Shown here in pieces: positions 4,247-42,056 of a stretch of DNA of 64,000 nucleotides. A program made the translations under genes and the position numbers. Under the pieces are notes generated by a model that saw only the letters and a program-made list of their open reading frames with translations, did not search any database and was not told the DNA's origin. Each line of letters starts with the position of its first letter. Position 1 is the first letter of the stretch. Source of the stretch: a virus (taxonomy: Duplodnaviria; Caudoviricetes); the IMG/VR virus record IMGVR_UViG_3300010882_000012; one strand, given 5' to 3'.

Positions 4247-5782
4247 TTGAAAGTAAGAATTTGTACCGAAAATCCCAATTTTTTACAAATCTATGAAGCA
4301 ACAGACAAAGAATTGACACAAATAGAATACAGTTTTAAGCCATTTGTAGATAATTATCGTTTTAATCCTAAGTATAAAAGAGGAATTTGGGATGGAAGAA
4401 TTTCATTTTATTCAAAACATAAAAGATTGATTCCAATTGGTCTTTGGAATCAACTTTGTGTTGTTGCTAAAGAATTTGATTTTGAATGTTTTATAGAAGA
4501 TATCGATGAAATTGTTGATCAAAATTTTATTTTTGAAGAATTTGAAGAATGGATACGAGATTTTTTTAAAGATCATCCATTATATTGTATCGGGGGCGAA
4601 AAAGAAGTTAGAGATTATCAAATAAAATCAGCATTTAATATATTACAATTTCGATTATCAACATCAGAAATTGCAACATCCGCAGGGAAAACTTTAATTA
4701 TGTTTATAGTTTTTGCTTATCTCTTTTCAACTAATAAGATTAAAAATTATCTAATTATAGTTCCTACTACTTCTTTGATTTTACAAGGGATGGAAGATTT
4801 TGAAGAGTATAATAATGGAAAATTAAAGTTTGATATTTTACCGGTACATGCGGGAACTAAAAAAGACAGAACAGGATATGAGATAATTTTTGGTACTTTT
4901 CAATCTTTGACAAAACAAGAAACGGAATGGTTTGCTGATATTGATGTGATTTGTGTAGATGAATGTCACACAGCTCAAAATCAATCAATTAGAGATATAA
5001 TTTCAAAATGTCCTGGATTAAAATATCGGTATGGATTATCGGGAACGGCAAAAAAACATCCAAATAGTGCAAATCACTATACATTACAAGCATATTTAGG
5101 TCCTTATGTTAATGACATCTCAGCTAAGTTTTTAATAGATAACAAGTTTGCTACTCAAGTTTTTGTTAAGGTAGTAAGAATGAACTATCTTGAAGATGAT
5201 ATCAAGAAAAAACTACAAGAACTTAGATACAAGAGACATGAAATTGAAGGTACAAAGTTACTTAATATTGAAAAAAAGTTAGTAATTGACAATAGAAAAC
5301 GTTTTCTTTATGTTACTGATTTTATTTCTAAAGCAACTAAAAATTCTTTAGTTTTATTTGCTGATATTAAGTATGGTTATGGACGAAAGATTTATGATTG
5401 GCTGCGACAAAATACAGATAAAACAGTTTATTATATTGATGGAGATACTAGTACAAAAAACAGAGATTTATATTTTTCTGAAATGGAAGAAGGAAATAAT
5501 AAAATTTTAGTTGCAAGTTTTTTAACTTGTAGTCAAGGAATTTCTATAAATAATTTACATAATCTTTTTTTAGTAGAAAGTTATAAATCCGATAAAATTA
5601 TCCGGCAATCAATTGGGCGTGGTATGCGTAAACAGAAAAATAAAGAAAGAACTACAATCATTGACTTTTGTGATGATTTTTCAATGAAAACACAAGGATA
5701 TCTTAGAAAACACTCGGAAGAACGAATTCAAACATACAAAGAGCAAGGATTTCCTTTTAAAATTTTTGAAGTGAACTACTAA
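4247..5782 (+). CDS. uvsW: SF2 DNA helicase UvsW
   Basis: WDGRI, RDYQ, ATSAGKT, DECH, GLSGT, QSIGRGMR. Confidence 0.93.
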   Translation: MKVRICTENPNFLQIYEATDKELTQIEYSFKPFVDNYRFNPKYKRGIWDGRISFYSKHKRLIPIGLWNQLCVVAKEFDFECFIEDIDEIVDQNFIFEEFEEWIRDFFKDHPLYCIGGEKEVRDYQIKSAFNILQFRLSTSEIATSAGKTLIMFIVFAYLFSTNKIKNYLIIVPTTSLILQGMEDFEEYNNGKLKFDILPVHAGTKKDRTGYEIIFGTFQSLTKQETEWFADIDVICVDECHTAQNQSIRDIISKCPGLKYRYGLSGTAKKHPNSANHYTLQAYLGPYVNDISAKFLIDNKFATQVFVKVVRMNYLEDDIKKKLQELRYKRHEIEGTKLLNIEKKLVIDNRKRFLYVTDFISKATKNSLVLFADIKYGYGRKIYDWLRQNTDKTVYYIDGDTSTKNRDLYFSEMEEGNNKILVASFLTCSQGISINNLHNLFLVESYKSDKIIRQSIGRGMRKQKNKERTTIIDFCDDFSMKTQGYLRKHSEERIQTYKEQGFPFKIFEVNY

Positions 5783-5784
5783 AG

Positions 5785-6792
5785 ATGATAATTAATAATT
5801 GCAAAATAGACCTGTACAATCAAGATTGTTTCAAGGTCTTTTCTAATTTAAAAGATGGTTCAGTTCATCTTGCCATAGTTGATCCTCCTTATGGAATTTC
5901 AATGAAAAACAGTCATTCAGATGATGTTCAAGATTGGGATAAGTTTGAAAAAGAAGAGTTTGTTAAATTCACAACCAAGTGGCTTAATGAACTTTACAGA
6001 GTTTTAACTCCTAATGGAAGCTGCTGGATTTTTTTCGGTCCTACTATGATACATGAAATGTTTGATGCTATTGCACAAACTAAGTTTCACAATTTGTTAG
6101 AAAATTGGATTTGTTATGCAAGAAACAAAGGAAGAGGTGCTAGCAAAAAATTAAAATCATTAAGAGAGGATATCTTCCACTTAGTTAAGGATCCAAAAGA
6201 CTACACTTTTCACAGTGAAGAGTATTTGCGAAGAGTAGTTGCGCCTTATGTTTTAAAAGGTGGAGAAAAAAGAGGATGGGATTATAGAGATGGAGTTCCT
6301 ATGCGCTATACAGGATTAGGAAACATTATGGCTTTTTCTGAGTATGAATCGCGAAAAGGTGCAAAACCAAAAGGGTGGGTTCCTGATATTTCAACAGGAG
6401 AACCATTACAGTTTTCCGGTGAACCTACTGATGTTTGTTTCTTTACACCACCTACTTATCATCATAGATTTGAAAAACAAGTGCATACATGTCAAAAACC
6501 GGTGCAACTATTAACTATGCTAATTTTGATGAGTTCTAAAATGGGTGAAACAGTAATTGATCCGTTTATGGGAAGTGGAAGTACGGGAGTTGCGGCAGTG
6601 ATTGGAGATAGGAATTTTATTGGTATTGAAATGAGTACTGATGTTTTTAATAAAGCAAAGAATTGGTTAGAAAACATCAATTTTAGAGAAGCAGAAAAAT
6701 ACTTAAAGGACCATATCTCAAGTTCTGAAGAAAACTCAAAGTTTCATTATAGTAAAAGAGATTTCATGCCCAAGTTAAAGAAGTTGTTTTAA
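5785..6792 (+). CDS. DNA amino-methyltransferase (beta class, N6A/N4C)
   Basis: DPPY precedes HTCQKP and DPFMGSGSTG. Confidence 0.9.
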   Translation: MIINNCKIDLYNQDCFKVFSNLKDGSVHLAIVDPPYGISMKNSHSDDVQDWDKFEKEEFVKFTTKWLNELYRVLTPNGSCWIFFGPTMIHEMFDAIAQTKFHNLLENWICYARNKGRGASKKLKSLREDIFHLVKDPKDYTFHSEEYLRRVVAPYVLKGGEKRGWDYRDGVPMRYTGLGNIMAFSEYESRKGAKPKGWVPDISTGEPLQFSGEPTDVCFFTPPTYHHRFEKQVHTCQKPVQLLTMLILMSSKMGETVIDPFMGSGSTGVAAVIGDRNFIGIEMSTDVFNKAKNWLENINFREAEKYLKDHISSSEENSKFHYSKRDFMPKLKKLF

Positions 6793-6807
6793 TAATAGAA
6801 AACTTGC

Positions 6808-6833
6808 AAAATAATCTGGAATAAATAGTAAAA
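6808..6833 (+). promoter_or_regulatory. Putative late promoter AAAATAATCTGGAATAAATAGTAAAA
   Basis: Eight related copies, mostly before structural genes; core resembles T4 late TATAAATA. Confidence 0.8.
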
Positions 6834-6847
6834 AATAGTGTATATCA

Positions 6848-7603
6848 ATGTTAAGAAAAATTAAATCCATAGATGAGTTCATCAACGAGAATTTGCAACA
6901 AAAAGTAAATGAAGAGTTGTATGATAGAACAGTTAATTTAAAATCTTTTAGACCTGAAGAGCAAAATTTCATTAGAAGAGTTTTGAATTTTGACAGTAAT
7001 GTGAAAGAAGTGTATGCTGTTAGTAATACTTTAGGAGTACAAAAGAAAGATTTTGCTAAAGTTACTAAAAGTTTGGGAAGCATACTTGAAGGACCAGTTA
7101 ATATTGAAGGTGTTACTTATACTGTTTATCAAGGAAATGGAAATAGTCCGGTAGTTGAATCAAAAAGTGGAAACAGTGTGATTTACTTAATGGATGCAGA
7201 TGCTATTTTAGAAGGACATCTTTTTGAAAGTGAAAATATTACACCAGAAGATTTGACAATTATTTTAGAAGCTTTACCAGAACTTGAAAAATTGATTTTT
7301 AAAAGAATTGGAATGAAAGTTAAACTTTCAGCAGAACTTAATCCAGGAAGAACGGATTCTTATATAAGAATTTCAAGCGGAGACTTGATGAAAGAATATG
7401 GAAATAATCCCATTGTTAAAGCATGTTTTGCAAAATGGAATCTTTATTTCTGGGGTGGTACCAAAATAAAAGATAATGAATTTTGGTTTAATCCAAAATG
7501 TAGTTATGAACATCCTTCAGGGGGACAAAATGGCACCGACTTTATTTGGGACAGTTTGTGGTTACAGAATGGTAAATGGGTAGAAGGAAGAGTAATTGTT
7601 TAA
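6848..7603 (+). CDS. Putative internal head protein with capsid-targeting-like N-terminus
   Basis: N-terminal KSIDEFINE; follows late promoter. Confidence 0.6.
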   Translation: MLRKIKSIDEFINENLQQKVNEELYDRTVNLKSFRPEEQNFIRRVLNFDSNVKEVYAVSNTLGVQKKDFAKVTKSLGSILEGPVNIEGVTYTVYQGNGNSPVVESKSGNSVIYLMDADAILEGHLFESENITPEDLTIILEALPELEKLIFKRIGMKVKLSAELNPGRTDSYIRISSGDLMKEYGNNPIVKACFAKWNLYFWGGTKIKDNEFWFNPKCSYEHPSGGQNGTDFIWDSLWLQNGKWVEGRVIV

Positions 7604-7631
7604 TAGCATATTTTAAAATAACAACAAACTA

Positions 7632-8099
7632 ATGAAGAAATTAACAGAAAGTTTAAAACAATACAGAGAAGAAAATCAAGAACAGTTTTTGTTGGAAAGG
7701 TACACTATTAGTAATAGTGATATAGCAGCAATTAAAAGATTGAAAAATTCTTATTTTGATGAACTTGATAAATTGACAATTCCTGCACGAGATTTTTTGA
7801 TGATGTTTTTTAATGCTATTAATGGAACTTTACCATTTTCTCAAAGATTTAATGCTATTACAGAAGGAAAAGTTAATTAAAATTATCCAACAGGAATTGA
7901 TGGAATTAGACAAAAAATGGCAGACTTTTTTAATGTTACTATTGGAAGTTTAAAACAGTTTAATTTTGATGGTACTGATGATTGGAAAAAGTTGACAAAA
8001 GCTTTAAATTCAACAAGCGAAGAAGGAACTAAGAATATTGTACGAGTAGCTTACAATGCAGCAATTAGAGATGGTGAAATAGATGGAACACCAATTTAA
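7632..8099 (+). pseudogene. Probable single gene interrupted by in-frame TAA at 7878-7880 (ORFs 7632-7880 and 7917-8099)
   Basis: Both ORFs share a frame and the 36 nt between are open (NYPTGIDGIRQK). Confidence 0.55.
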
Positions 8100-8122
8100 G
8101 GATAGTAAACAAAAAAAACACT

Positions 8123-8980
8123 ATGAACAGAAGAATTTCAACACTTGATGAATTCATCAATGAATCAAAACAAACAATAATTAATGAAGCTTTTGAGTCT
8201 AACATACTTAGAATAATGTCAAAAACTAAGATGTGGAGACAAATTAAAGATAGTATTAAGTTAAAATGGGATGAAATTAAAGATGATGATTTCATTCAAT
8301 TAGAACCGGTAGAAGCAGCAAAGAAAGCTAAAAAACAAGACGGTCAACATCCAATGGTAATTTTTTGGATGAATGGAAATGATTTACTCGGGGTTTCTAG
8401 AAATGATTGGGTAATGGTTACTGAATTTTATTACAAAAGCTATCGCTCAGGGGCTACACCAGTTTATCGTTCAGTTGATGCTATTAAAAGAGATTCAACT
8501 AACACTTACATAATTGATGATGCAAGGTACATTGAATTTAATGCTAATGATGTAAGACAAGAACGTTGGGCAAATAAGCAAGATGCTGAAGCTTTCAAAC
8601 AAAATTATGAAATTAAAAATGCTAATATCACAAGATACAAAGGAATTTTAGCAGAAAACAAAACTAAAAGATTGTTACCAGAAGAGGAAGAAATCAAAAC
8701 TATGGTAAAAGAAGTTTTCGAACATTACCAAACTTTGTTTGAAAAGTTAGTTGGTAGCCCGGATTGGTACAAAATTAAAAAATTGGGAGGTAAAATTGCT
8801 AATTTCTTAAATCTTTATAGTGAATTTACAAACAGAAGTACACAAGTTGCAGATTATAAAGCAAGAGGAAAAGAACCAGATGCTTATTATAATGATGAAT
8901 TAAGAAAGAATTACTTAGGTATTAAGCAAATTTTGTTAGAATTACAGAAAGAAAATGAAGAGCAAGTTGCCGCAGCTTAA
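8123..8980 (+). CDS. Putative internal head protein (CTS-like N-terminus)
   Basis: STLDEFINE then IINE. Confidence 0.6.
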   Translation: MNRRISTLDEFINESKQTIINEAFESNILRIMSKTKMWRQIKDSIKLKWDEIKDDDFIQLEPVEAAKKAKKQDGQHPMVIFWMNGNDLLGVSRNDWVMVTEFYYKSYRSGATPVYRSVDAIKRDSTNTYIIDDARYIEFNANDVRQERWANKQDAEAFKQNYEIKNANITRYKGILAENKTKRLLPEEEEIKTMVKEVFEHYQTLFEKLVGSPDWYKIKKLGGKIANFLNLYSEFTNRSTQVADYKARGKEPDAYYNDELRKNYLGIKQILLELQKENEEQVAAA

Positions 8981-8995
8981 AATAATGAGATAATA

Positions 8996-9304
8996 ATGAA
9001 GACTTTTAATGAATTTTTAACAGAAGCAAAAGAAGTAGATTATGATGGTGTTCTACTAAAAGATTTAGAAAAACTTTTGGATAAGTACCTTAATGATAAG
9101 ATTAAAACAAACGAAGAATTTGATGATGCTTTTTCAGCAGTTCTTAGTTTAATGCACATGGCTTTTAAAGTTGGTATGAAAATGCAATCCGTTGGTTATG
9201 TTGAAGTTACACCAGTTTTAGCAAAAGCTGAAAAAACTTTGAAATCTGATTTTAGAGTTTTTGATCAAGTTAAAAATAGTCCCGGCGGACTAAAATTCCA
9301 ATAA
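8996..9304 (+). CDS. Putative internal head protein (T4 IP-like CTS)
   Basis: MKTFNEFLTE versus T4 IPIII CTS MKTYQEFIAE. Confidence 0.65.
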   Translation: MKTFNEFLTEAKEVDYDGVLLKDLEKLLDKYLNDKIKTNEEFDDAFSAVLSLMHMAFKVGMKMQSVGYVEVTPVLAKAEKTLKSDFRVFDQVKNSPGGLKFQ

Positions 9305-9332
9305 GAATTAACTAAAATAACAAGATAGGAAA

Positions 9333-9956
9333 ATGAAACAAAGAGTTTTAAATTTAGACCAATTCATTGCTGAAGATAGTAGAATAGACAGAGAGCTTAA
9401 TTCATTAGTAGAAATAGCAGTAAATGAACAAGAAACAACAGAGCAATACAGAGAAACATGCAAATCAATTCTTAAAGAGAATTTTGGTGTTACTTCTATT
9501 GAAGTTTTGACTTTTGATCAAAAATCAAAGTATGTTGACATATTGAAATCAACAGACATGATTAAAGAAAGTATTGAAAGAGCAGAACAATTAGATGAGT
9601 CATTAAAAGAAGAGTATCAAACTTACTTTAGAGAATGCTTAAAAGGGTTTGGTATTAAAAATCTTAGCGAACTTACTAAAGAAACAAAACCTAAATTCTG
9701 GAAAACAGTAAAAGAAGGTTGGGAAAAAGGAAAAGGACGTAAAGAATCAGGTGAAAAGAAAATTGAAGAAGCTGAAATCAATGAAGCCGAAATTAAATCT
9801 GAAGAAGAATTCAGAAAATATGCAGAAGCTCGTTTAAAAAAGATGCACAAAGATGACTTTGATGAAACTAAAGCAAAGGAAACTATTGATGGATTATTAA
9901 AGAAAAAGAAAGAAGATAATCTTGAGTTTGGTGCTTTGGTGGGAATGTTAGGCTAA
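9333..9956 (+). CDS. Putative internal head protein (CTS-like N-terminus)
   Basis: NLDQFIAE; several internal (L/I/V)xE sites. Confidence 0.6.
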   Translation: MKQRVLNLDQFIAEDSRIDRELNSLVEIAVNEQETTEQYRETCKSILKENFGVTSIEVLTFDQKSKYVDILKSTDMIKESIERAEQLDESLKEEYQTYFRECLKGFGIKNLSELTKETKPKFWKTVKEGWEKGKGRKESGEKKIEEAEINEAEIKSEEEFRKYAEARLKKMHKDDFDETKAKETIDGLLKKKKEDNLEFGALVGMLG

Positions 9957-9975
9957 AAATTTAAATTACAATAGA

Positions 9976-10359
9976 ATGGAAAGAAAAATTAAAAGTTTAG
10001 ATAATTACATCAATAGTGAAAAAGTTATTGCTGAATCTTCAATTAATGAATCAACTTCTTACAACAGAGTTGTAGAATGTGCAAGATTTTTTGACAATTT
10101 GATTTCCATAATAGATGTACCATCTGACTTTACAATAATTCAATTTACTGAAAGAGAAACGTATGGTCAAGTTTTACGAAATTGGGATATTGATAAAGAA
10201 GATCCTAGATTTAATGAAACAGTAAAAGCTGGAATTTACCTCTTATTAAGGGGTAGTTATCGAAAAATACTAGATTTGTTTACACCAACCGAATCTTTTA
10301 CAATTTCAGCTAGATCAAAAACAGAGTCTATCTTTTACTACAGTTTTGGTGAATTTTAA
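9976..10359 (+). CDS. Putative internal head protein (CTS-like N-terminus)
   Basis: KSLDNYINSE...SINE. Confidence 0.55.
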   Translation: MERKIKSLDNYINSEKVIAESSINESTSYNRVVECARFFDNLISIIDVPSDFTIIQFTERETYGQVLRNWDIDKEDPRFNETVKAGIYLLLRGSYRKILDLFTPTESFTISARSKTESIFYYSFGEF

Positions 10360-10373
10360 AAACTAAAACTAAG

Positions 10374-11297
10374 ATGAGATTGTTCTACTTTTTAAAACGT
10401 CTTAACAAGTGTCTTAAAGAAAATTATGGCACTAATGAGTTTAAATTGCTCCGCAAAAAAGTGTGGAGTGATTTTGTTTTCATGATATTCATGGGACTTT
10501 ATGCTTGGATTACATCGGTTTTGATTTGGTGGATTGCTGTTTTAAGAAGAAAAGCAGTACAGAAAAATTTCTATGAAGCTATTAATCCTAAGATTGAAAA
10601 TTGGCTTAGAGACAAGTTCATGCCACATCCATTAGATAGAAAATACCGAATGCTTGAAGTTGCTATGTGGACTAAAATTTCAAGTTCAGAAGCAATTAGA
10701 ACTTTAGAAGATGCAAAAAATCATATCCATTGGAGATTAACAGGAAATGCTTGGAGATATGAAAAAGATAATTTTACAGAAGATGAGAAATTATTAATGG
10801 CTGAATTAGCTTGTCATTTTGACTTTGATCATCTAAGAAAGTTGATAAAAGAAAGAATGAGTTTCATTAATTACAGAATGCTTTGTCATCTTTCTATGGA
10901 CAATATTGCAAATCCATATCCACAATACTTTATGCTACAAAAGTACAATAATAAATGGTGGTTGGCTTGTATTGCAGATTACGTTTTTAGAAATCCAAGA
11001 AATACCGGTTACTATTTAGGAGATAGATTTTTAACATGTGATTTAACCAATATGCCAATTCATGGATTTAAGAATGTTTATGGTAAAGTAGAAATAGAAG
11101 GAATAGGACAAAGAGAATTAGGTGAACAGTTTTATTACACCGACGATCAAAACTATTTTCATTATCAGTGTAATGATGAAAAAGAAAAGAATTGGTTTCA
11201 GTTTGGATTTGGATACTTAAAACCTAATCCGGAAAGAGCTAGACCATATTTGGGTACTTCAATTCGTAAAATAATTAACACACCAACATACTATTAA
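10374..11297 (+). CDS. Hypothetical protein with one predicted transmembrane helix
   Basis: Hydrophobic FVFMIFMGLYAWITSVLIWWIAVL followed by RRK; no CTS-like motif. Confidence 0.6.
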   Translation: MRLFYFLKRLNKCLKENYGTNEFKLLRKKVWSDFVFMIFMGLYAWITSVLIWWIAVLRRKAVQKNFYEAINPKIENWLRDKFMPHPLDRKYRMLEVAMWTKISSSEAIRTLEDAKNHIHWRLTGNAWRYEKDNFTEDEKLLMAELACHFDFDHLRKLIKERMSFINYRMLCHLSMDNIANPYPQYFMLQKYNNKWWLACIADYVFRNPRNTGYYLGDRFLTCDLTNMPIHGFKNVYGKVEIEGIGQRELGEQFYYTDDQNYFHYQCNDEKEKNWFQFGFGYLKPNPERARPYLGTSIRKIINTPTYY

Positions 11298-11298
11298 G

Positions 11299-11946
11299 AT
11301 GATAGAATTAAAAGGATTTCTAAGTTTTGATCAATTTTTAAATGAGAATTTAAAAACAGGTTCTTTATTTGTAGTTAGTTATGGAGGAAAATTTAGTCCG
11401 TTTCATTCAGGGCATTTTGAAATTTACGAAAAGATTTGCAAACAGTTTGGTAAGGATAATGTTTTTATTACAACATCCGATTTACCTGTAAAACCAGATC
11501 CTACAAAACATTTTTTAAATTTTGAAGAAAAATCTTCAATAATGACAAAGATGTTTAAAATTCCATCAAATCGAATTTTTAAAGTGAAGAACAATTATGC
11601 ACCTATGGAATTATTAAATCAATTTCCAGAAAGTACAATTTTCGTTACTGTTCTTGGACAAAAAGATGTAGAAAGATTAGTTAATGGGAAGTACTTTAAA
11701 TGGATGGCTAAAGAAGATGTTTTGGTAGCTAAAAATGGTTCTGATTTAAGTTGGTTACAAGGGTACAAAGAAAGTGGTTACGTTTGGATAGAAGAAAATT
11801 GGAATGTTAATTTAAGCGCTACTGAAATTAGAGAATTTTTTAGAAATCCGGCAAATTCTTTAGAAGATAAGGAAAGATTTTTTAAGAAAATCTATGGTAA
11901 GATGGATGCAGGTATTTTTAATATGCTGGATTCTAAGATAAAATGA
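11299..11946 (+). CDS. HIGH-motif (cytidylyl/adenylyl) nucleotidyltransferase with CTS-like N-terminus
   Basis: YGGKFSPFHSGH, GQKD, LSATEIR; N-terminal SFDQFLNE. Confidence 0.85.
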   Translation: MIELKGFLSFDQFLNENLKTGSLFVVSYGGKFSPFHSGHFEIYEKICKQFGKDNVFITTSDLPVKPDPTKHFLNFEEKSSIMTKMFKIPSNRIFKVKNNYAPMELLNQFPESTIFVTVLGQKDVERLVNGKYFKWMAKEDVLVAKNGSDLSWLQGYKESGYVWIEENWNVNLSATEIREFFRNPANSLEDKERFFKKIYGKMDAGIFNMLDSKIK

Positions 11947-12226
11947 AGATGAAATTTTAATAGGAGTTAAATCACTTTTTGAAAAAATTGGTAAAATTTG
12001 GTATACCACTAAAGATGGTATTGAACATATTTATTGGCCAGATTTTTTTATCCCAAAAATTAACACTATTATTGAAGTCAAAAGTACATGGACATATGAA
12101 CATAATAAAGAAATTACACACTTAAAAAAGCAAGCTTGTATAGATTTAGGATTTAATCATGAAGTTTGGTTAGTACAAAGAAAAAAGAAAAATGATGATA
12201 ATACTAAAAGGATTAAAATCTTTTGA
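11945..12226 (+). pseudogene. Start-less remnant of a PD-(D/E)xK homing-endonuclease domain; not in ORF track
   Basis: Frame reads HIYWPDFFIPKINTIIEVKSTWT...KKQACIDLGF, homologous to the C-terminus of 29601-30644; in-frame TAA just upstream. Confidence 0.75.
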
Positions 12227-13493
12227 TCAATTTTTGAATGAAAAAATTAAAGAATCATTAGTAATTTCATATGATTTTAAAACAATGGCAGATTTAAATG
12301 GTGGTGCTTTTGGTCATCTATCTCATCTTTATGAAGATTTAGACCTTACTTTTGGAGATTTAAAAGAAATTGTTGAGGCAGGTTTAAGGGGTGAACTTAA
12401 TGAAATAGTGGAAAAGACTGATGGTCAGGCTCTTAGTTTATCATTTAAAGATGGTAGAATTATCTATGCTCGTAATAAAGGACAGTTTAAAAATTTTGGT
12501 GCTAATGCACTTGATTCTAAAGGAATTAAAGAAATGTTTGCTGGTAGAGGAACTTTGTCAGAAGCCTACAATTTTGCCATAGATGATTTAGAATCAGCAC
12601 TATTAAAATTACCAACAAAAGAACTTAATGCCATTTTTAATGAAGGTGAAAAATTCATGCATTTAGAAGTGATGTACACTAGAAATCAGGTTACAGTTCC
12701 TTATGGTGCTGAACTACTTGTTTTTCATAATGTTAGTACCTATGATAAAGATGGTGAATTAATGGTACAAGATAGAAAATCGGCAGACAAACTTGCTAAG
12801 ATGATAAAGGATGTGAATGCAGAAGTTCAAAAAACTTTTAAAATTCAAGGTAGTCCTTACGTAGACATGAAAGTAATTGATGATTTTGACAAAAAGAAAT
12901 CTGAATTTTTCAAGAAAATTAACGAGATAGAAAAGAAAGTAGGTTTAATTGATACAAGTACTTTAGGAGATTACTATGAGCAAGAATTTGAGAAAGTTCT
13001 TAAAAAAGAGAGACCTGGACTTAATGAAATAGAAAGAATAGGTTTGGTAAGAAGATGGGTTAGAGAGGACAAAAGTTTCAGATTAGACAAAAGCAATTTA
13101 GAACTTGAAAATATCGAATGGGCTAAAGATTTTGAGAAGAGTAAAGTTCTTAATACTATTAAAGAGATTAGAAAACCAATCGAATTATTTTCAATAGAGT
13201 TAGGAATTGAAATTATTAAGAATATCAAAACTTTTTTAACGGTTAATCCAGACCAAGCCACTGAAAGTATTAAACGAGAATTGGACAAAGCAATTAATGA
13301 TATTAAATCAGGCGGAGATGAATCAGCAATTAACAAAATGGAAAGACATCTAGAACGATTACAATCATTTGGAATGGACCAAATCTTTCCAACAGAGGGT
13401 GTAATTTTTCAAAGAGGAAACCAATTGTACAAACTCACAGGTACTTTTGCAGATGTACATCACATCATAGGAATTTTAAAATTTGGAAGATAA
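12192..13493 (+). CDS. Ligase-fold nucleotidyltransferase-like protein (DUF6267-like) with CTS-like N-terminus
   Basis: GGAFGHLSHLYED, EKTDG (motif I KxDG), EGVIF (IV), YKLTG (V); N-terminal SFDQFLNE. Confidence 0.7.
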   Translation: MMIILKGLKSFDQFLNEKIKESLVISYDFKTMADLNGGAFGHLSHLYEDLDLTFGDLKEIVEAGLRGELNEIVEKTDGQALSLSFKDGRIIYARNKGQFKNFGANALDSKGIKEMFAGRGTLSEAYNFAIDDLESALLKLPTKELNAIFNEGEKFMHLEVMYTRNQVTVPYGAELLVFHNVSTYDKDGELMVQDRKSADKLAKMIKDVNAEVQKTFKIQGSPYVDMKVIDDFDKKKSEFFKKINEIEKKVGLIDTSTLGDYYEQEFEKVLKKERPGLNEIERIGLVRRWVREDKSFRLDKSNLELENIEWAKDFEKSKVLNTIKEIRKPIELFSIELGIEIIKNIKTFLTVNPDQATESIKRELDKAINDIKSGGDESAINKMERHLERLQSFGMDQIFPTEGVIFQRGNQLYKLTGTFADVHHIIGILKFGR

Positions 13494-13909
13494 TGAAGCA
13501 GAGAATATCAAACACACTAGAACAGTTTATCAATGAAAATGTTGAGTACAGATTTATTGGAGATGATAACAAACCTATGGAACCATCAAAAGAGGTAGAA
13601 AAATTTAAAATACCACAAGATCCAATTACGGTTGCTAAAGTAACAGGTCACTATGGAAAAATGAGTACAAGAGATTATGCTTATGTTGAAGTTACTTTTT
13701 CAAATGGACAAGTATATTCTTTAGTTGTTGATCCTCCTAAAAAAGAAAAGTACAGAGTAAGAATTGATCATAGAACAGAAAGTGGACAAACTTGGCAATA
13801 TCCAATTGCAGGCGATGATTACCTCAACATGATGAAAAAGTATGATGAAGATATTGTTTACGTTGCAACACTTTTAATTGCCCAAAAGTTTTTTAAAATG
13901 AAGATTTAG
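13493..13909 (+). CDS. Putative internal head protein (CTS-like N-terminus)
   Basis: TLEQFINE. Confidence 0.6.
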   Translation: MKQRISNTLEQFINENVEYRFIGDDNKPMEPSKEVEKFKIPQDPITVAKVTGHYGKMSTRDYAYVEVTFSNGQVYSLVVDPPKKEKYRVRIDHRTESGQTWQYPIAGDDYLNMMKKYDEDIVYVATLLIAQKFFKMKI

Positions 13910-13911
13910 AG

Positions 13912-14340
13912 ATGGAACAAAGAATACCATTATTTGAGGATTTTATCATAGAAGCAGATTTTTCTTGGAATGTTGATGATGTTTTAAAAACAGTTCAAGA
14001 ATGTTTGCCTAATTTAGAAAAAAGAATTTTAAAGACTTTCAATAGAAACGTAAAATTGGAAGCAACATATGAACAACAAAGTCATCAAATTAGAATTAAA
14101 TCCGGTTTTCTTTTGGCGCCAAAATCTGAAATAGGACAATCATATGATGTTTACGAATACTATTTTTGGTTTGGTAGAATAGTTGATTCCCCAAAACATC
14201 CCGAATTAACATGGAAACCAACTTTAAAATCAAAAGCAAAAGAAGGATATTCTGGAATGCAATCTACTGATGTATTCTGGAAAGAGATAACACTAAACTT
14301 TGAAACACAGAAATGGTCTTTTAAAGGTAGAGTAGATTAG
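13912..14340 (+). CDS. Putative internal head protein (CTS-like N-terminus)
   Basis: PLFEDFIIE. Confidence 0.6.
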   Translation: MEQRIPLFEDFIIEADFSWNVDDVLKTVQECLPNLEKRILKTFNRNVKLEATYEQQSHQIRIKSGFLLAPKSEIGQSYDVYEYYFWFGRIVDSPKHPELTWKPTLKSKAKEGYSGMQSTDVFWKEITLNFETQKWSFKGRVD

Positions 14341-14360
14341 GAGATAAAATTAGAGAAAAA

Positions 14361-15446
14361 ATGTTAGCACAATTAAAGAGCTATTTTGAGGAAAATGGTA
14401 AAGAAAAAACTATTAACCTCTTGAAAAAGTACACTACAATTACAGAGAAAATTAATGCGCATAGAGTGTACTGTAAAAAGGAAAAAACAGGAAACATCTT
14501 GTTTTATTCCAAAAAGAAATCAAGCCCGATTACAATTTTAGATCGAATTACAACAGATCTTTACGAACCATTCATTAAGCACATCATCAGTAAAAAAGAC
14601 AAGTTGCAAATTGGTGAACATGGTTTTTACTTTATTAAGGATGATATTGATGTAGAGTATTCACAGAAACCGCAAAATTTTCTGTTAATTACCGATATCC
14701 CATTTAAAACAGGAAAAACTATTGTAGAAATTGCAATAGAGTTAGATGTTTCCTATGCACCACCTGTTTTCAAAGGAATTCTTAATGATGTAGCAGCCGA
14801 GAAAATCATTGAATATCTTGAAAATGAACACAATGAACAATCTCTTTTATTATTGTTTAACATGTTGTTTGATAAAAATTGTTCCATGTTTTTTGAAGAA
14901 GATGGAATAGTTGAAGGTTTTGTTTTCAACTTTAAAGAAGAGGGGACTTTTAGTTTGTATGATGATAATTTTGTGAAAAAAGAATTTCAGAAATTAAACA
15001 CAGCAAGTTACGAATTACTTGTTATTGAGATTTTTGAGTTTATCAAACAACAAGATTTTTCAACTGTTAAAATGCACAGTAAAAATACTGAAATTAAAAA
15101 AGCAGAATTCATCTTTGAAGTTTTCAACCGATTTGTCGAACAGACTGAAAATCTTGAAAATTACTTGCTTAATGAACCTGAATTTCTTAGTATGAAAGGT
15201 AAAGTAAATCGCAGGTACATTAACAACCAAAAGACTATTGACTTGATTTCTAAGAACAAAAAGTTAGAATACTTGCTTAGAGTTTTTATTACAGCTATCA
15301 AAGATGTGCAAAAATCGCGCGGCGTAATTTCTCAAGATTTAGCAGAAGAACACAACTACATCATACTAAAAATTAATGACTACATCCGAAACTCTGAAAA
15401 TCTTCTTGATTTTGAGAATTTTCGCAAGTTTTCACAAGAAATCTAA
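14361..15446 (+). CDS. Degenerate RNA-ligase-like (Rnl2-fold) protein
   Basis: TEKINA (cf. TEKxDG), PPVFKG, VEGFVF. Confidence 0.45.
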   Translation: MLAQLKSYFEENGKEKTINLLKKYTTITEKINAHRVYCKKEKTGNILFYSKKKSSPITILDRITTDLYEPFIKHIISKKDKLQIGEHGFYFIKDDIDVEYSQKPQNFLLITDIPFKTGKTIVEIAIELDVSYAPPVFKGILNDVAAEKIIEYLENEHNEQSLLLLFNMLFDKNCSMFFEEDGIVEGFVFNFKEEGTFSLYDDNFVKKEFQKLNTASYELLVIEIFEFIKQQDFSTVKMHSKNTEIKKAEFIFEVFNRFVEQTENLENYLLNEPEFLSMKGKVNRRYINNQKTIDLISKNKKLEYLLRVFITAIKDVQKSRGVISQDLAEEHNYIILKINDYIRNSENLLDFENFRKFSQEI

Positions 15447-15453
15447 GAGTGTC

Positions 15454-15479
15454 AAAATAATTCGGAATAAATAGTGAAA
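15454..15479 (+). promoter_or_regulatory. Putative late promoter
   Basis: AAAATAATTCGGAATAAATAGTGAAA. Confidence 0.75.
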
Positions 15480-15508
15480 GATAGTCAAAACTAAAAAGAT
15501 TTTAGCAT

Positions 15509-17173
15509 ATGAAATTTCCAACATACATCATTAATGAGGGTAAATTGGTTACAGTAAAAAGAAGATACACTGATAATCATCCCGAACAAAAAGTTGCAGC
15601 AATTACACCAGTAAGAGAAAAAGTTCTTGCTTTTGTAGGAGAAAGAGGTAGAGTATCAAAATCTGAGTTTGTTGAATTTCTAAGAGGATTTAATGAAGAA
15701 GCAGGTAGAAACACAACTTTTGCATGGGTTAGAAAAAACAAACATCTTTTTGATACTGTTAGAGAATCGGGTTCTGGTGAATTACAATTCAGACTTTCAA
15801 AATTTGGAAAAAGAGTTCTTGAAAAAACTAAGATTAATGAGTCAGTTGATACAGAACAAATGCTTAATGAAGACTACACAGATTCTCTTATCAAGTTGAC
15901 AGCCAAGAAATTGGGTGCCGATTTAACACCTTATGATTTGAAACAAGTAAAGATAGGTATGGCAGTAGAATTAAAACATGGTACCAAATTTGGTGATGTT
16001 TCTAATATCACAAAAGATGATCCGGAATTGACAATGAAGTTAGTTCTTGGAAATCTCATGGTAAATCCGAAATATTACACAGATCCAAAACCTGAAGATT
16101 GGGGTGAAATTGAAACTGAAATGGATAGAAAGGGAAGTGTTGAAAAAGCAGCAGAAGATAATGAAGAGGAAGTAGAACTTGAAGAACCGGATGAAATTGA
16201 AATCAAGTTAGATGATGATAAACAGAAAGACAATAAAGAGGTAGATAATCCAGAAAACAAAGAAGGTGAAAAGAAAGAAACCGAGGGTGAGAAAAAAGAG
16301 GAAGAAACAAAGGGTGAAACATCTGATGAAAAGCCAGCAGAAAGTAGTGAAATTTCTCCTGATGAAAAGAAGAAAAAGATGGTTGAGTTTTTACAAAAAG
16401 TAATTGATGAAGGAATAACAGGCGATGCTTTTGTTTCGAAATTAACTTTACTTGCTAAAGAACTTAATATGGAGTATGATGACCTTAAAAAAGAAATCTA
16501 TGGAATTGGTTTCAAAGCTATTAAGGAAGATAGTGTAGATGTTAATATTGAAGATTTGTCAGATGAAGCACAAGAAAAAATGGAAAAGAAAATCGGTGAT
16601 GAAGTACAATTAACAGATGATTTAATTCAAACTTTAGCAAAAGAAGCAGGAATTGAAGAAAAGCTAGTTAGAAGATTTTTCTATGAAGCAGCTAAATTAC
16701 AGTTAGCAAAACAAAAACTAACTAAAGATGAAAGTGAAATTAATGCAGCAGACATGCCGGAAGATTTAAAAAAGAAAGAACAAGTGAAAGAGTCAACTAC
16801 AGGATTTTTAACAACAGATGCAATAGACAAAAACACACCTGATAAATTAGGAAAGTACAATACTAAGAAAATGTTAACACTTGATGATTTTCTTGCTAAC
16901 AGAATGATACAACCGGCAAATGAAAGTGAACTTAATGAAGCTAAAGCACAACTTTGGACTTATTATGCACGCCATAATCCTCAATTAGGAGTTTACTACA
17001 AATTCTACAAAGAACCTCTTTCAGCAGCTGAATTTAAAAGAAAAGAAAAAGCAGGTTTAACAGGATATGGAAGTAATTATTATTACAGTTTTGCAACAAA
17101 AGAAGAGTTAGAAGCTGAATTTGCAAAATTAGAAGCAAAAGGAGAAAGAGTAAGCTGGACAAATCTTCTCTAA
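15509..17173 (+). CDS. Multidomain acidic putative virion protein with DUF5661-like segment
   Basis: GMAVELKH...NPKYYT segment; Glu-rich linker; many INE/LNE/VKE sites. Confidence 0.55.
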   Translation: MKFPTYIINEGKLVTVKRRYTDNHPEQKVAAITPVREKVLAFVGERGRVSKSEFVEFLRGFNEEAGRNTTFAWVRKNKHLFDTVRESGSGELQFRLSKFGKRVLEKTKINESVDTEQMLNEDYTDSLIKLTAKKLGADLTPYDLKQVKIGMAVELKHGTKFGDVSNITKDDPELTMKLVLGNLMVNPKYYTDPKPEDWGEIETEMDRKGSVEKAAEDNEEEVELEEPDEIEIKLDDDKQKDNKEVDNPENKEGEKKETEGEKKEEETKGETSDEKPAESSEISPDEKKKKMVEFLQKVIDEGITGDAFVSKLTLLAKELNMEYDDLKKEIYGIGFKAIKEDSVDVNIEDLSDEAQEKMEKKIGDEVQLTDDLIQTLAKEAGIEEKLVRRFFYEAAKLQLAKQKLTKDESEINAADMPEDLKKKEQVKESTTGFLTTDAIDKNTPDKLGKYNTKKMLTLDDFLANRMIQPANESELNEAKAQLWTYYARHNPQLGVYYKFYKEPLSAAEFKRKEKAGLTGYGSNYYYSFATKEELEAEFAKLEAKGERVSWTNLL

Positions 17174-17187
17174 AAACTAAAACAATA

Positions 17188-17403
17188 ATGAAAAGAATTC
17201 CATTATTTGAAGAGTTTATTGCAGCAGGTGGTGCCAATGTAGGTGCAACACCACAGAATACACCAGGTATGGGTAATGTTCGTGTAGGAACTATTGCCGG
17301 TGGTGCAGAATCTTTCCATAATGGAACTCCAGGAAGCGGAGATATTTTAGGAATGGGAAGTAGTTTTAGAAATCGAAAAAAGCGTAAAAAACGTCGTTCA
17401 TAA
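17188..17403 (+). CDS. Small Gly-rich protein with CTS-like N-terminus and basic tail
   Basis: PLFEEFIA, NTPGMGNV, RNRKKRKKRRS. Confidence 0.65.
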   Translation: MKRIPLFEEFIAAGGANVGATPQNTPGMGNVRVGTIAGGAESFHNGTPGSGDILGMGSSFRNRKKRKKRRS

Positions 17404-17434
17404 TAGGAGATTAAAGAATGAAAGAAATGTTAAG

Positions 17435-17460
17435 AAGTTGCAATTTTTTGCGACTTTTTT
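17435..17460 (+). terminator. Rho-independent terminator closing the late operon
   Basis: AAGTTGCA/TGCGACTT stem plus T run. Confidence 0.7.
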
Positions 17461-17473
17461 CATCCCCAAAATC

Positions 17474-17502
17474 AAAACTTTTTCTAGATTCGTAGTACAA
17501 AT
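17474..17502 (+). promoter_or_regulatory. Putative middle-class promoter
   Basis: AAAACTTTT-N13-TACAAAT. Confidence 0.6.
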
Positions 17503-17528
17503 TTAAAACTAAAAAGATTAAAATTTTA

Positions 17529-18242
17529 ATGAAGGATTATCCAGTTTTAAAGTACAAATTAAGAACAGAAAATGCCTATCATCCAGTTAGAGGAACAAAA
17601 GGAAGTTCCGGTTTGGATGTTTTTTCACCAATTGACATTATTGTACCAGCACGCCAAGATGCTTTAATTCCAACAGATTTAAGTTTTGATATTCCATTTG
17701 GTTGGGATTTGGCTGTTTACAATAAATCTGGTATTGCCACTAAGAAAAAACTCTTTAAGGGTGCCGAACTCATTGATACAGACTATGTTGGTAATTGTCA
17801 TATCCACTTTTTTAACCATTCAGATGTTGATGTTGAAATTAAGAAAGGAGATAAAATCGGACAACTTGTAATGAGAGAAGTTTGGATGGGTGAGTTACAA
17901 CAAGTAGATGAAATTGTAAAAGATACAGAAAGAGGCGAAGGCGCTTTTGGTTCAACAGATAAACAAAAAGAAGTTGAATTTAAACCGGTAGATGATGAAG
18001 ATTTTGGACATGCCGGTTGTTGGAAGTGTGGTAAAAGTATTGAGTTCACAAGAGATGATATTGAACAATACAGTGCGCTTATTCCATACATCATTTGTCC
18101 TGAATGTAATGCTAAAATAGACGTTTCTAATGAGTACATGGAATACTTAAAATCAAGAGATGTTGTAATTGAAGAACAAAAGAAATTTCTTGAAAATCAC
18201 AAGAAAGCACAAAAAGAACACGAAGAAAAATTTAAAGCATAG
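17529..18242 (+). CDS. dut: Trimeric dUTPase with C-terminal Zn-ribbon extension
   Basis: SSGLDV, KSG, LIDTDYVG, GDKIGQL, RGEGAFGST; then CWKC...CPEC. Confidence 0.9.
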   Translation: MKDYPVLKYKLRTENAYHPVRGTKGSSGLDVFSPIDIIVPARQDALIPTDLSFDIPFGWDLAVYNKSGIATKKKLFKGAELIDTDYVGNCHIHFFNHSDVDVEIKKGDKIGQLVMREVWMGELQQVDEIVKDTERGEGAFGSTDKQKEVEFKPVDDEDFGHAGCWKCGKSIEFTRDDIEQYSALIPYIICPECNAKIDVSNEYMEYLKSRDVVIEEQKKFLENHKKAQKEHEEKFKA

Positions 18243-18244
18243 AG

Positions 18245-18517
18245 ATGAGTCAAAATTTAAACGCCCAACAAATGGGAATGATGGGACAACAGTTACCATG
18301 GCATAAAGCCACAACAATAGAATGCAAATGCGGCAACAAGTTTTTTACGGAAGTTTTCTTGATGAAAAAATTTCCAAAGACTATCATAGAAACACCAGGC
18401 GAGATGAAATTTCCTGAAGATCAAATAGTACCAATTGCAGTACTTTCTTGTAGTAAATGTGGTGAAATTCAAAAGGACATGCTACCAAAGCAAGTTCAAG
18501 AAACAATAGGTTTGTAG
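18245..18517 (+). CDS. Small Zn-binding hypothetical protein
   Basis: CKCG...CSKCG. Confidence 0.65.
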   Translation: MSQNLNAQQMGMMGQQLPWHKATTIECKCGNKFFTEVFLMKKFPKTIIETPGEMKFPEDQIVPIAVLSCSKCGEIQKDMLPKQVQETIGL

Positions 18518-18518
18518 T

Positions 18519-19925
18519 ATGATTAACATAGAACAAGCAGATTCTAGTTTGAAGATTTCTTACTTTAATGAAAAGGGAGAGATTGATATGTTAAGTGTGC
18601 AAATACCTCAAAATGAGTACTATGAGTGGTATTATGCAAAAACTTCTAAACATGATTTGCACTTTAAATCATGGAATAATAAACCGGTCATCAAAAACAA
18701 TTCTAAGTTCTTATCAAGCAATAGGATAAAGGAATTTTTGGCAAAACAACCAGAACATGTTCATGAAAGGATTTATCAGTACAACATGCCTAAAAAGTTC
18801 TTTGTCGATATAGAGGTAAACAATGATGATGAGTGGCCAGAACCAAGTATTGCAAGACATGAAATTACGGCAATTTCTTTTTCTCACGGTCAACTTTTAG
18901 TTGTAATGGGTCTTAATGAACTTTCAAAATCTCAAGTAGAAGAAATTGAAAAATCAATTAATGAGTACTTGGCAACTAAAGAATATCCACCTATTGAGTT
19001 TCGTTACATCTACTATAAAACAGAGTATGATATGATTTTTACTTTTTTCAACAAGTGGATTCAGAAAATGCCTTTAATTACAGGATGGAATTTTGTTGAA
19101 TTTGACTGGGCATACTTAGTTAATCGTTGTAAAAAACTTGCAATTGATCCAGGAGTTGCTAGCCCAAGTAAAAAACTTTATGGTAAAAATCAATTACCAA
19201 TGCACAGAGTTGTAGTTGACTATATGGCTATCTACAAAAAATGGGACAGAGTAGTATTCAAAGAAAACAATAGTCTTGACTATGTTGCAACTCAAGCAAC
19301 AGGATTAGGAAAAATTAAGTACAATGGAACTTTAGCAGATCTTTACACAACAGATTTTCAGAAGTACATCTATTACAATGCTATTGATAGTGTTTTAGTT
19401 AGGTTAATTGATGAAAAAATTTCTACAATGGATTCAATGTTTAGTTTAGCCAAAGTAACAAAATCTGAAATTCTTAATGTTTTTTCGCCAATTTCAATGA
19501 CTGAAAATGTTATGGTAACTGAATTTTTCAAAAGAGGAAAAGTTTTTACTAATGAGAGAAGAAAGTTAACAGAAAAAGAAGAGTATGAAGGTGCTTTTGT
19601 TTTTGAACCAATACCGGATCTTTTAGAATGGTGTGCAAGCTTTGACTATGCCAGCCTATATCCAAGTACAATGAGACAATGGAATATGAGCCCGGAATCG
19701 TATCTTGGTAAAATGGACAAGAAACTTTTTGATGATCCTGAATTTGTCAAAGATCCAAATGTTATCTATTCGGCAAGCGGTGCAATGTTTGACGGTAAAG
19801 AAGATTCAGTTTTTAGAGTAATTTTGAACAATCTCTATGCAAAGAGAAGAGAAGCAAAAGATGCAATGGAAACTGTAGAATTAGAAATGGAAGAATTAAA
19901 AAGAATGAAAGAAAGACTAAAATAA
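18519..19925 (+). CDS. gp43: Family B DNA polymerase, N-terminal subunit (exonuclease and motif A)
   Basis: DIE, GWNFVEFD, YNAID, YEGAFV, SFDYASLYPS; ends in fingers helix. Confidence 0.9.
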   Translation: MINIEQADSSLKISYFNEKGEIDMLSVQIPQNEYYEWYYAKTSKHDLHFKSWNNKPVIKNNSKFLSSNRIKEFLAKQPEHVHERIYQYNMPKKFFVDIEVNNDDEWPEPSIARHEITAISFSHGQLLVVMGLNELSKSQVEEIEKSINEYLATKEYPPIEFRYIYYKTEYDMIFTFFNKWIQKMPLITGWNFVEFDWAYLVNRCKKLAIDPGVASPSKKLYGKNQLPMHRVVVDYMAIYKKWDRVVFKENNSLDYVATQATGLGKIKYNGTLADLYTTDFQKYIYYNAIDSVLVRLIDEKISTMDSMFSLAKVTKSEILNVFSPISMTENVMVTEFFKRGKVFTNERRKLTEKEEYEGAFVFEPIPDLLEWCASFDYASLYPSTMRQWNMSPESYLGKMDKKLFDDPEFVKDPNVIYSASGAMFDGKEDSVFRVILNNLYAKRREAKDAMETVELEMEELKRMKERLK

Positions 19926-41315: not shown

Positions 41316-42047
41316 ATGATACCAAATCACTTAGAGAAGATCATTTTTCACAATATCCTTGAAAATAAAGAGTACATTAGGGTAACAAAAGCAGAATTTT
41401 TTGATTCTCCAAATTATTCTGATTTGTTCAAATGTGCCGCCGGATTTATTGAGAAGTACAATCAAACTCCTACAAAGGAACAAATGGTTGAACTTGCAAA
41501 AATTGGAGGTCTTGAAAAGATTAATCGAGATTTCATTGAAATTGTATTCAATTGTGACAAATCAGCATATGATAAAGAATGGTTGCAAGAATCAACAGAA
41601 GCTTGGATTGAATCTAAAAAACTTGAAAAAGCTGCAAATCAATTAGTTACCTATCTTAAAACTACAGATATCTCAATAGAAAATGTTAAGAATGTAGTGG
41701 AAACTTCAAGAGATATTATCATGAATGGTACTAATCTTGATTTAAAATTTGATGAAGGTCTTGACTTTTTTAATCCTGAAAGCCATAGACAACCATTAGC
41801 AGATACTTTTAGTTCTGGATTTCCATATGTTGATTTAGTTCTTGGAGGTGGTTGGTATTCAAAAGCTTTGTTTGTACTTTGCGGACAACAGAAAGTTGGT
41901 AAGTGTTCAAAAGGTACAACAAAAATTACTATTAGAAACAAAAAAACAGGGGAAATTAAGAAAATTTCATTGAAAAAATTTCATGAGTTAACTAAAAAAT
42001 TAAATCCTACTTTTTGTAGACCAACATTCCAAAATAATCTGGAATAA
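41316..42047 (+). CDS. gp41: Replicative helicase gp41 N-terminal fragment fused to 47-aa N-intein (likely start ATG 41316)
   Basis: SGFPYVDLVLGGG...GQQKVGK|CSKGTTKITIRNKKTGE; intein Cys codon at 41904. Confidence 0.88.
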   Translation: MIPNHLEKIIFHNILENKEYIRVTKAEFFDSPNYSDLFKCAAGFIEKYNQTPTKEQMVELAKIGGLEKINRDFIEIVFNCDKSAYDKEWLQESTEAWIESKKLEKAANQLVTYLKTTDISIENVKNVVETSRDIIMNGTNLDLKFDEGLDFFNPESHRQPLADTFSSGFPYVDLVLGGGWYSKALFVLCGQQKVGKCSKGTTKITIRNKKTGEIKKISLKKFHELTKKLNPTFCRPTFQNNLE

Positions 42048-42056
42048 ATAGTAAAA
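42031..42056 (+). promoter_or_regulatory. Putative late promoter for the endonuclease; overlaps stop codon of helicase-N
   Basis: AAAATAATCTGGAATAAATAGTAAAA. Confidence 0.8.

Follow-up and report, generated by a model that had tools for sequence, protein, structure and literature searches.

Phage T4 packages a small set of internal proteins (IPs) and related products, among them the anti-restriction protein IPI*, by means of a short N-terminal capsid targeting sequence (CTS) reportedly described by Mullaney & Black in 1996. In the T4 record, ipII and ipIII begin with MKTYQEFIAE and ipI with MKTFKEFTS…ITE. Targeting has been mapped mainly to residues 4 and 7 of the CTS and processing to residues 8 and 10, and CTS-like starts were already known in T-even relatives (PMC9026906; T4 internal proteins and their CTS are reviewed there and in PMC3012670). 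Here, a comparable leader is described from a 64,000-nucleotide stretch of viral DNA (IMG/VR record IMGVR_UViG_3300010882_000012; hereafter the window). It is 10–17 residues long, follows the pattern hydrophobic-D/E-E/Q-F/Y-I/L-x-E and stands at the N-terminus of 10 of the 15 open reading frames (ORFs) in the block at positions 6848–17403. ORFs are named by their first nucleotide. An earlier interpretation of the window, made without database searches (the sequence-only reading), had proposed that this block is a cassette of packaged, injected effectors. We consider it likely that the shared N-terminus is a T4-type CTS, and that the proteins bearing it are loaded into the head, lose the tag by cleavage and are mostly released with the DNA.

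The N-termini of all 250 ORFs of the source contig were scanned with the strict pattern [LIFVMT][DENS][EQDN][FY][IL][ANTI][ESA]. Ten N-termini matched, with the motif starting at residues 4–11 and every one within 6848–17403, and only two internal matches were found in the 45,066 residues of the 250 ORFs. Counted by location, 10 of 15 ORFs in the block carried the leader versus 0 of 235 outside it (Fisher p = 1.4e-14), so that the possibility raised in the sequence-only reading, that the motif might be equally common in non-late genes, was not borne out. The ten N-termini quoted there were all present at the ORF starts given, its statement that replication genes do not start with the motif agreed with the scan of the contig, and the weaker motif it had noted in 7632 and 15509 proved real but weak (FLLE at residues 19–22 and YIINE at 6–10, respectively). 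A further weak version is present in 14361 (LKSYFEE at 5–11). The ORF lengths were the same as in gene calls made independently on further assemblies of this phage.

As a cross-check, a position-specific scoring matrix was built from the leaders of the closest IMG/VR relative alone (G001; 425,361 bp, 97% complete, portal 68% identical) and applied to the same 250 N-termini. The top nine were nine block ORFs, with scores of 6.2 to 31.4, the highest being that of ORF 8123, and the next N-terminus scored 2.4. The front of ORF 8996 is too short for scoring with this matrix. Relatedness of the mature parts was assessed by all-against-all BLAST after the first 22 residues had been cut off. The only related pair was 13912 and the C-terminal domain of 6848 (E = 9e-8). 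The earlier description of the ORFs as unrelated thus holds for all other pairs in this comparison but not for these two, which share a domain, and it is further qualified by 11299 and 12192, which in relatives form a single fused gene. Among the leader copies, codons differed synonymously while the amino acids were conserved, indicating that selection acts on the leader peptide. A Sec/Tat-type secretion signal was also considered as the identity of the leader and was dropped in view of the leader's charge and its lack of a hydrophobic core.

When aligned on the aromatic residue, all ten leaders kept a hydrophobic residue at position 4, F/Y at 7 and I/L at 8, and eight of the ten had E at 10. 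The resemblance to the T4 CTS claimed in the sequence-only reading was therefore upheld at the residues mapped as functional in T4. ORF 8996 begins with MKTFNEFLTE, which departs from the IPII/IPIII tag by four conservative substitutions, and its size (102 aa) resembles that of T4 IPI (95 aa) and IPII (100 aa). As with IPI, IPII and IPIII, a short (10–19-residue) N-terminal propeptide with the same key residues is attached to otherwise unrelated proteins. The likeness extends to late expression, as predicted from promoter motifs, to cargo that differs among related phages and to a lineage with a gp21-family protease. Unlike the T4 leaders, most of those found here are 14–17 residues long with a basic start added. 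In number, the three IPs and Alt of T4 compare with ten strong cases in one operon here and with about 50 in the genome of the closest relative, and some of the predicted cargo consists of enzymes of 200–430 aa.

Other described systems share parts of this arrangement. T4 Alt, a head-packaged ADP-ribosyltransferase, is cut at ITE-6 and LTE-619 (PMC5694885). It is a precedent for an enzyme that is loaded into the head via a short N-terminal propeptide with I/L-x-E at its end and that is delivered together with the DNA, although the enzyme classes encoded here, a HIGH nucleotidyltransferase and an Rnl1-like ligase, are different. In phiKZ-like giant phages, Glu is likewise the residue after which many head-internal or ejected proteins are cut, by a protease that is a distant relative of gp21 (phiKZ gp175, SPN3US gp245; MEROPS S80), and their propeptides have been proposed to act like a CTS (PMC5694885, PMC10052503). 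Those propeptides are mostly longer than 100 residues and carry an S/A/G-x-E cut motif, whereas the leaders described here have only 10–17 residues with I or L two positions before Glu, as in T4, and the protease of the relatives scores as S77 itself. In phage P1, loading is governed by partner proteins that act in a hierarchy and by the N-terminal part of DarB, and it is not known to use a common short cleavable tag of such sequence. The P1 proteins DarA, Hdf and DarB are alike in that they are anti-restriction proteins incorporated into the head at assembly and injected with the DNA (PMC9024508, PMC12810830). In the literature searched, no paper was found on leader families of the CTS type in huge phages from metagenomes. 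While the mechanism itself is familiar from T4, what is outstanding here is the scale, the enzyme cargo and the split-gene case set out below.

Window positions 101–64000 correspond to the opening 63.9 kb of an IMG/VR contig of 146,406 bp that is AT-rich (~30% G+C) and rated ~56% complete. The T4-type core genes of the contig include one for a UvsW-type helicase, with a gp32 gene upstream on another assembly of the same phage, and those for gp46/47-like nuclease subunits, a gp55-like late sigma factor (52459) and a gp2 DNA-end protector. Its structural genes encode gp4 for head closure, a gp20-type portal, a gp15-like sheath stabiliser and a 1300-aa tail sheath protein. In the phage collection searched, the portal reached a maximum of ~43% identity to any record, and the nearest were Prevotella Lak megaphages and huge phages from metagenomes, namely LR756500.1 (43% identity) and further LR7565xx records. 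Based on the T4-type core genes and the portal neighbours, which also include G001, the window is a piece of a huge, AT-rich, uncultured phage that is a distant relative of T4. No match to cultured phages was obtained with the block by megablast, no relative in a viral-contig search with the single protein 12192, and no Rfam match over positions 5500–19000.

The block was found to be bounded by a late promoter and a terminator, as had been proposed. A late-promoter-like box, the 16-mer CTGGAATAAATAGTAA, is located at 6816–6831 on the plus strand, 32 nt before 6848. A terminator-like hairpin with a U-run and an 11-bp stem follows at 17433–17463 on the same strand; the minimum free energy of the folded 72-nt stretch was -14 kcal/mol (z -2.2). 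With 0–2 mismatches, the box recurs 19–116 nt before the genes for the portal (54265) and the sheath (62684, minus strand, two copies) and before 47934 (gp15-like), 49611 and the endonuclease gene 42058, and beyond the window it also precedes the ORFs starting at 109303 and 146085 (window numbering, minus strand). A weaker copy with three mismatches, at 15462–15477 on the plus strand, precedes 15509. The exact T4 late-promoter box TATAAATA was rejected as the signal, as it was not enriched on the contig (6 sites vs 9.6 expected) and none was present before the block; the contig's own box is the variant GGAATAAATAGTAA. In G001, 48 gene starts are preceded by the box GAATATATAAAATAAA, mostly at a distance of 18–37 nt and at most 94 nt away; among them are those of the protease, a tail-tube-like protein, homing endonucleases and 11 genes that stand first in a leader cluster. 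The common promoter motif and the gp55-like sigma factor support transcription of the operon late, together with the structural genes.

The box near 42058 lies at 42039–42054, and the endonuclease gene behind it (42058–43215) interrupts the replicative helicase. Many GIY-YIG-like endonuclease genes of G001 likewise have the equivalent box in front of them. From these late boxes, the homing endonucleases of the lineage look late-expressed.

The relatives provided the head genes and a candidate for the enzyme that removes the leader. In LR756500.1, genes for the portal, an S77 protease and the capsid protein stand in a row. The protease domain lies inside a 632-aa protein (PF03420, 44.8 bits, above the cut-off), and the capsid protein begins with MIKLINE. 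G001 has a 683-aa gene of protease-scaffold type (PF03420, 45.5 bits, above the Pfam cut-off) and a capsid protein that begins with MKLLNE. Its capsid gene is followed by one further gene and then by eight co-oriented leader ORFs; others lie a few kb further along. In total, about 50 of the 677 ORFs of G001 carry a leader, with the consensus M-x-x-R-I-P-T/S-L-D-E-F-I-N-E-S, and LR756500.1 has about 27–30 ORFs that begin with MKYIKEYEEF(I/L)xE. The stretch between the UvsW helicase and dUTPase genes holds different leader ORFs in LR756500.1, a 263-kb JGI contig and a 54-kb Logan contig, and in the last of these, ~20 of 26 ORFs bear the leader.

Two neighbouring cargo genes showed how the leader behaves when a gene is divided. 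ORF 11299 (11299–11946, plus strand) encodes a 215-aa HIGH-type (cytidylyltransferase-like) nucleotidyltransferase with the leader MIELKGFLSFDQFLNE; its PF01467 domain (E = 5e-9) starts at residue 28, behind the leader, and the HxGH motif is intact. ORF 12192 (12192–13493, plus strand) encodes a 433-aa Rnl1-like ligase-fold protein with the leader MMIILKGLKSFDQFLNE and an EKTDG (KxDG) motif that is nearly invariant across 21 homologues. The predicted model of 12192 had a pLDDT of 85.6 with low confidence at residues 1–38, and in both predicted models it was the leader region that had low confidence. With Foldseek, the top matches were T4 RNA ligase 1 (2c5u, E = 6.7e-4, prob 0.99) and a fungal tRNA ligase. 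The matches 2c5u, 8rbj and 6n0t had probabilities of 0.98–0.99 and low TM scores of 0.24–0.29. As modelled, 12192 combines the KxDG motif with an Rnl1/Trl1-like adenylyltransferase fold, the two features by which an Rnl1-type ligase is recognised.

The closest homologues of 12192 are nucleotidyltransferase-ligase fusions with a single, N-terminal leader; the junction between the two parts lacks one. Distant homologues (414 aa) begin with MIRLNKLLSEVLLNE directly before the conserved GGAYGH. In the phage studied here, the nucleotidyltransferase and the ligase-like protein are separate genes with a near-identical leader on each. Exactly between them, at 11942–12226 on the plus strand, lies a 94-codon open frame without a start codon, which corresponds to the C-terminal remnant of a DUF7487 (Hef-type) homing endonuclease (E = 1.6e-12, profile positions 163–219 of 220). 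An intact 314-aa DUF7487 gene is located directly upstream of the fused gene in the relative L075. We read this as a fused enzyme gene that was split by a mobile endonuclease, with both halves then tagged; a leader on both is what would be expected if each half needs the tag for its destination. A second cargo family gave a similar picture. For the domain shared by 6848 and 13912, 88 homologue clusters were found, of which ~24 have starts of the MKxLxTFxEFxNE type, and the distant ones begin directly with the domain. Judged by these homologues, the leader is modular, in that members of two cargo families occur both with it and without it.

These observations fit a series of steps modelled on T4. 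The operon at 6848–17403 would be transcribed late from the same type of promoter as the portal and tail genes. The leader would dock each protein onto the scaffolding core of the assembling prohead, and a gp21-family (S77) prohead protease would remove it after the Glu of the (I/L)-x-E triplet. The products, matured by the loss of 10–17 residues, would be enclosed in the head, and most would probably be released into the host along with the DNA. The cargo would then be a fast-changing set of small uncharacterised proteins, the HIGH-type nucleotidyltransferase, the Rnl1-like RNA ligase, and a large acidic and a small basic protein. That the proteins are packed in the virus particle is probable, and we infer docking, packaging, cleavage after Glu, ejection and the roles in the host or against its defences from the features described.

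Several results weigh against this interpretation. Two ORFs inside the block, 7917 and 10374, have no leader. The Glu of the 9976 leader is one residue later than position 10, and the 17188 leader has no Glu at the cut position. Most leaders have an added basic start, M-x-R/K-R/K-I-x-S/T, that has no counterpart in T4, so that the docking partner could differ. A profile search of the contig, which is incomplete, found neither Peptidase_S77 (PF03420) nor Gp23 (PF07068), and a tblastn search of the contig with the G001 protease-scaffold and capsid proteins found only a short arm in ORF 17188, which is why the candidate reader of the tag is taken from the relatives. In the megaphage Lak-A1, which does have an S77 protease, no N-terminal leader was enriched under either genetic code, and the protease alone does not, therefore, predict the tag. 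Nor was a leader present in the first 50 kb of Tenacibaculum phage PTm1, a stretch that covers the helicase region. From these two negatives, the tag is a feature of the sub-lineage to which this phage belongs and of other T4-like phages, and is not general among huge phages. The earlier proposal of packaged, injected effectors is supported in part: all that could be tested by sequence was favourable (the T4 CTS residues, the promoter, the confinement of the motif, and the S77 protease and head-module leader genes of the relatives), whereas the contig itself has no protease or capsid gene.

The leader could instead direct or dock its protein elsewhere, for instance to a compartment for replication or assembly, to a chaperone or to a regulatory protease, with its likeness to T4 being convergent. 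The basic extension and the tag-free Lak-A1 would both suit such a role, and the case for the prohead is built on sequence and genomic context only. Nevertheless, the T4 match falls exactly on the four mapped functional residues, the leader genes of G001 lie inside the head-gene module and have the promoter in common with it, the capsid proteins of the relatives begin with the same L/I-N-E triplet, and ORF 17188 of the block is homologous to the capsid-protein arm. We therefore regard a tag unconnected with the prohead as unlikely. It is also conceivable that the proteins are loaded into the prohead and processed there but are core, scaffold or DNA-condensing internal proteins that are mostly degraded or inert, in which case 'injected effectors' would overstate their role. 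The T4 core proteins gp22, gp67 and gp68 are cut by the same protease (PMC5694885). In the block, 15509 resembles scaffold or core proteins in its large size, acidity and low complexity, and 17188 is small, basic and capsid-arm-like. Two of the cargo proteins, however, are enzymes with intact motifs (HxGH in one; KxDG with an Rnl1-like fold in the other), and the cargo differs greatly among relatives, 8123 being an orphan, which fits accessory functions under diversifying pressure and not structural parts. A purely structural role for the set is thus improbable.

At the DNA level, the shared start might be no more than a remnant of common descent or of cassette exchange, such as a recombination or translation-initiation element, with no function of the peptide. 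Cassette shuffling is reported for T4-type phages (PMC2839356), and the leaders of 11299 and 12192 are close in DNA sequence. Yet the amino acids are conserved despite codon differences, the leader sits on unrelated mature parts, 45 of 52 G001 leaders have the aromatic residue fixed at position 11, and the peptide is conserved across phages of 24–32% G+C whose late-promoter boxes differ in sequence. An explanation without peptide function is accordingly very hard to sustain, and a T4-type CTS is the reading retained below.

The remaining ORFs of the block, all on the plus strand, were as follows. ORF 6848 (6848–7603) encodes 251 aa with the leader MLRKIKSIDEFINE and a C-terminal domain of ~125 aa in common with 13912. 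No informative match was obtained for the fold of this domain: Foldseek on the PDB gave nothing at E <= 0.001, the highest VIA Z was 5.7, and a search of BFVD returned unnamed phage proteins only. ORF 7632 (7632–7880; 82 aa) has the longer weak leader, …EQFLLE at 17–22, and is conserved in relatives, where homologues of 62–63 aa occupy the same place in L074 and L075 with FFILE/YFILE. It is followed by the leader-less 60-aa ORF 7917 (7917–8099), which had no family match. ORF 8123 (8123–8980; 285 aa), with the leader MNRRISTLDEFINE, is an orphan for which no homologue besides itself was found among 5.8 billion proteins and no usable Atlas match was obtained. The short T4-type leader described above belongs to ORF 8996 (8996–9304). 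ORF 9333 (9333–9956) encodes 207 Lys/Glu-rich residues behind the leader MKQRVLNLDQFIAE and gave a weak Ant-like PHROG match and nothing else. ORF 9976 (9976–10359; 127 aa) has the leader MERKIKSLDNYINSE, and the leader-less ORF 10374 (10374–11297; 307 aa) has a hydrophobic stretch near its N-terminus and no family match.

Downstream of the ligase-like gene, ORF 13493 (13493–13909; 138 aa) carries the leader MKQRISNTLEQFINE, and ORF 13912 (13912–14340; 142 aa), the paralogue of the 6848 C-terminal domain, the leader MEQRIPLFEDFIIE. ORF 14361 (14361–15446; 361 aa) has the weak leader-like start MLAQLKSYFEE and no family match; its counterparts in L006, L074 and L075, assigned by position and N-termini only, have a similar length and start. 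ORF 15509 (15509–17173) encodes a 554-aa acidic low-complexity protein (pI 5.0, 22% D+E) with I-N-E at 8–10 (MKFPTYIINE|G), and its counterparts by position in relatives begin with MRFNPYVIKE|G and MNFKKTSRLNE. A DUF5661 match of 15509 was weak (23.4 bits) and below the cut-off. DUF5661 was also seen on one fused ligase-like homologue (P0025) and on a 697-aa ORF at the corresponding place in L075. The last ORF, 17188 (17188–17403), encodes a 71-aa Gly-rich protein (pI 11.6) with the leader-like start MKRIPLFEEFIA and a basic tail. Its residues 6–52 were 53% identical, over 47 residues, to residues 41–86 of the G001 capsid protein (pairwise E = 9e-12; comparison locus L098:2–508, minus strand). 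It could be a capsid-arm mimic or a remnant of a capsid-gene duplication. The capsid-arm-like part is followed by a terminal Arg/Lys run.

Some further observations were made on the neighbourhood and on the relatives. At 18519–19925, a family-B DNA polymerase ORF of 468 aa matches approximately the first half of full-length phage polymerases, and the next gene encodes a ribonucleotide reductase; with this half size and the reductase gene behind it, the polymerase may be another split gene. In LR756500.1 (e.g. 12212–15898, 197835–199531, 323012), genes directly upstream of leader ORFs end in the conserved motif (N)ADDFGF(L/F)DN, just before the stop codon. There are several such genes, and many bear a leader themselves. 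In L074 (6857–9104) and L075 (6408–8655), an ATP-grasp (D-Ala-D-Ala-ligase-like) gene with a leader-like start is followed by an alanine-dehydrogenase/PNT-like gene without one, a pair that is absent from the window.

What is known of huge phages comes almost entirely from metagenomes, and the majority of their genes lack an assigned function. Tentatively, the T4-type tag may mark, in this lineage of huge phages, a first-strike kit that amounts to about 50 proteins in each genome, or ~7% of the called ORFs. The kit would include ready-made RNA-repair enzymes, namely the Rnl1-like ligase with the HIGH nucleotidyltransferase, which would arrive with the DNA and counter tRNA- or RNA-cutting defences before phage genes are expressed; the tag on each half of the split enzyme might then reflect selection for packaging each part. 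This is a possibility that we would put well below the CTS assignment itself. Given the RNA-ligase fold of 12192, RNA repair is a reasonable idea to test, and packaged enzymes of the RNA-repair type are a testable counter-defence idea. If the CTS reading is true, the tag would allow the head-carried and probably injected proteins of such a phage to be listed directly from sequence, ten in the window and about fifty in the closest near-complete relative, and the T4 loading mechanism would reach far beyond the T-even phages, scaled up.

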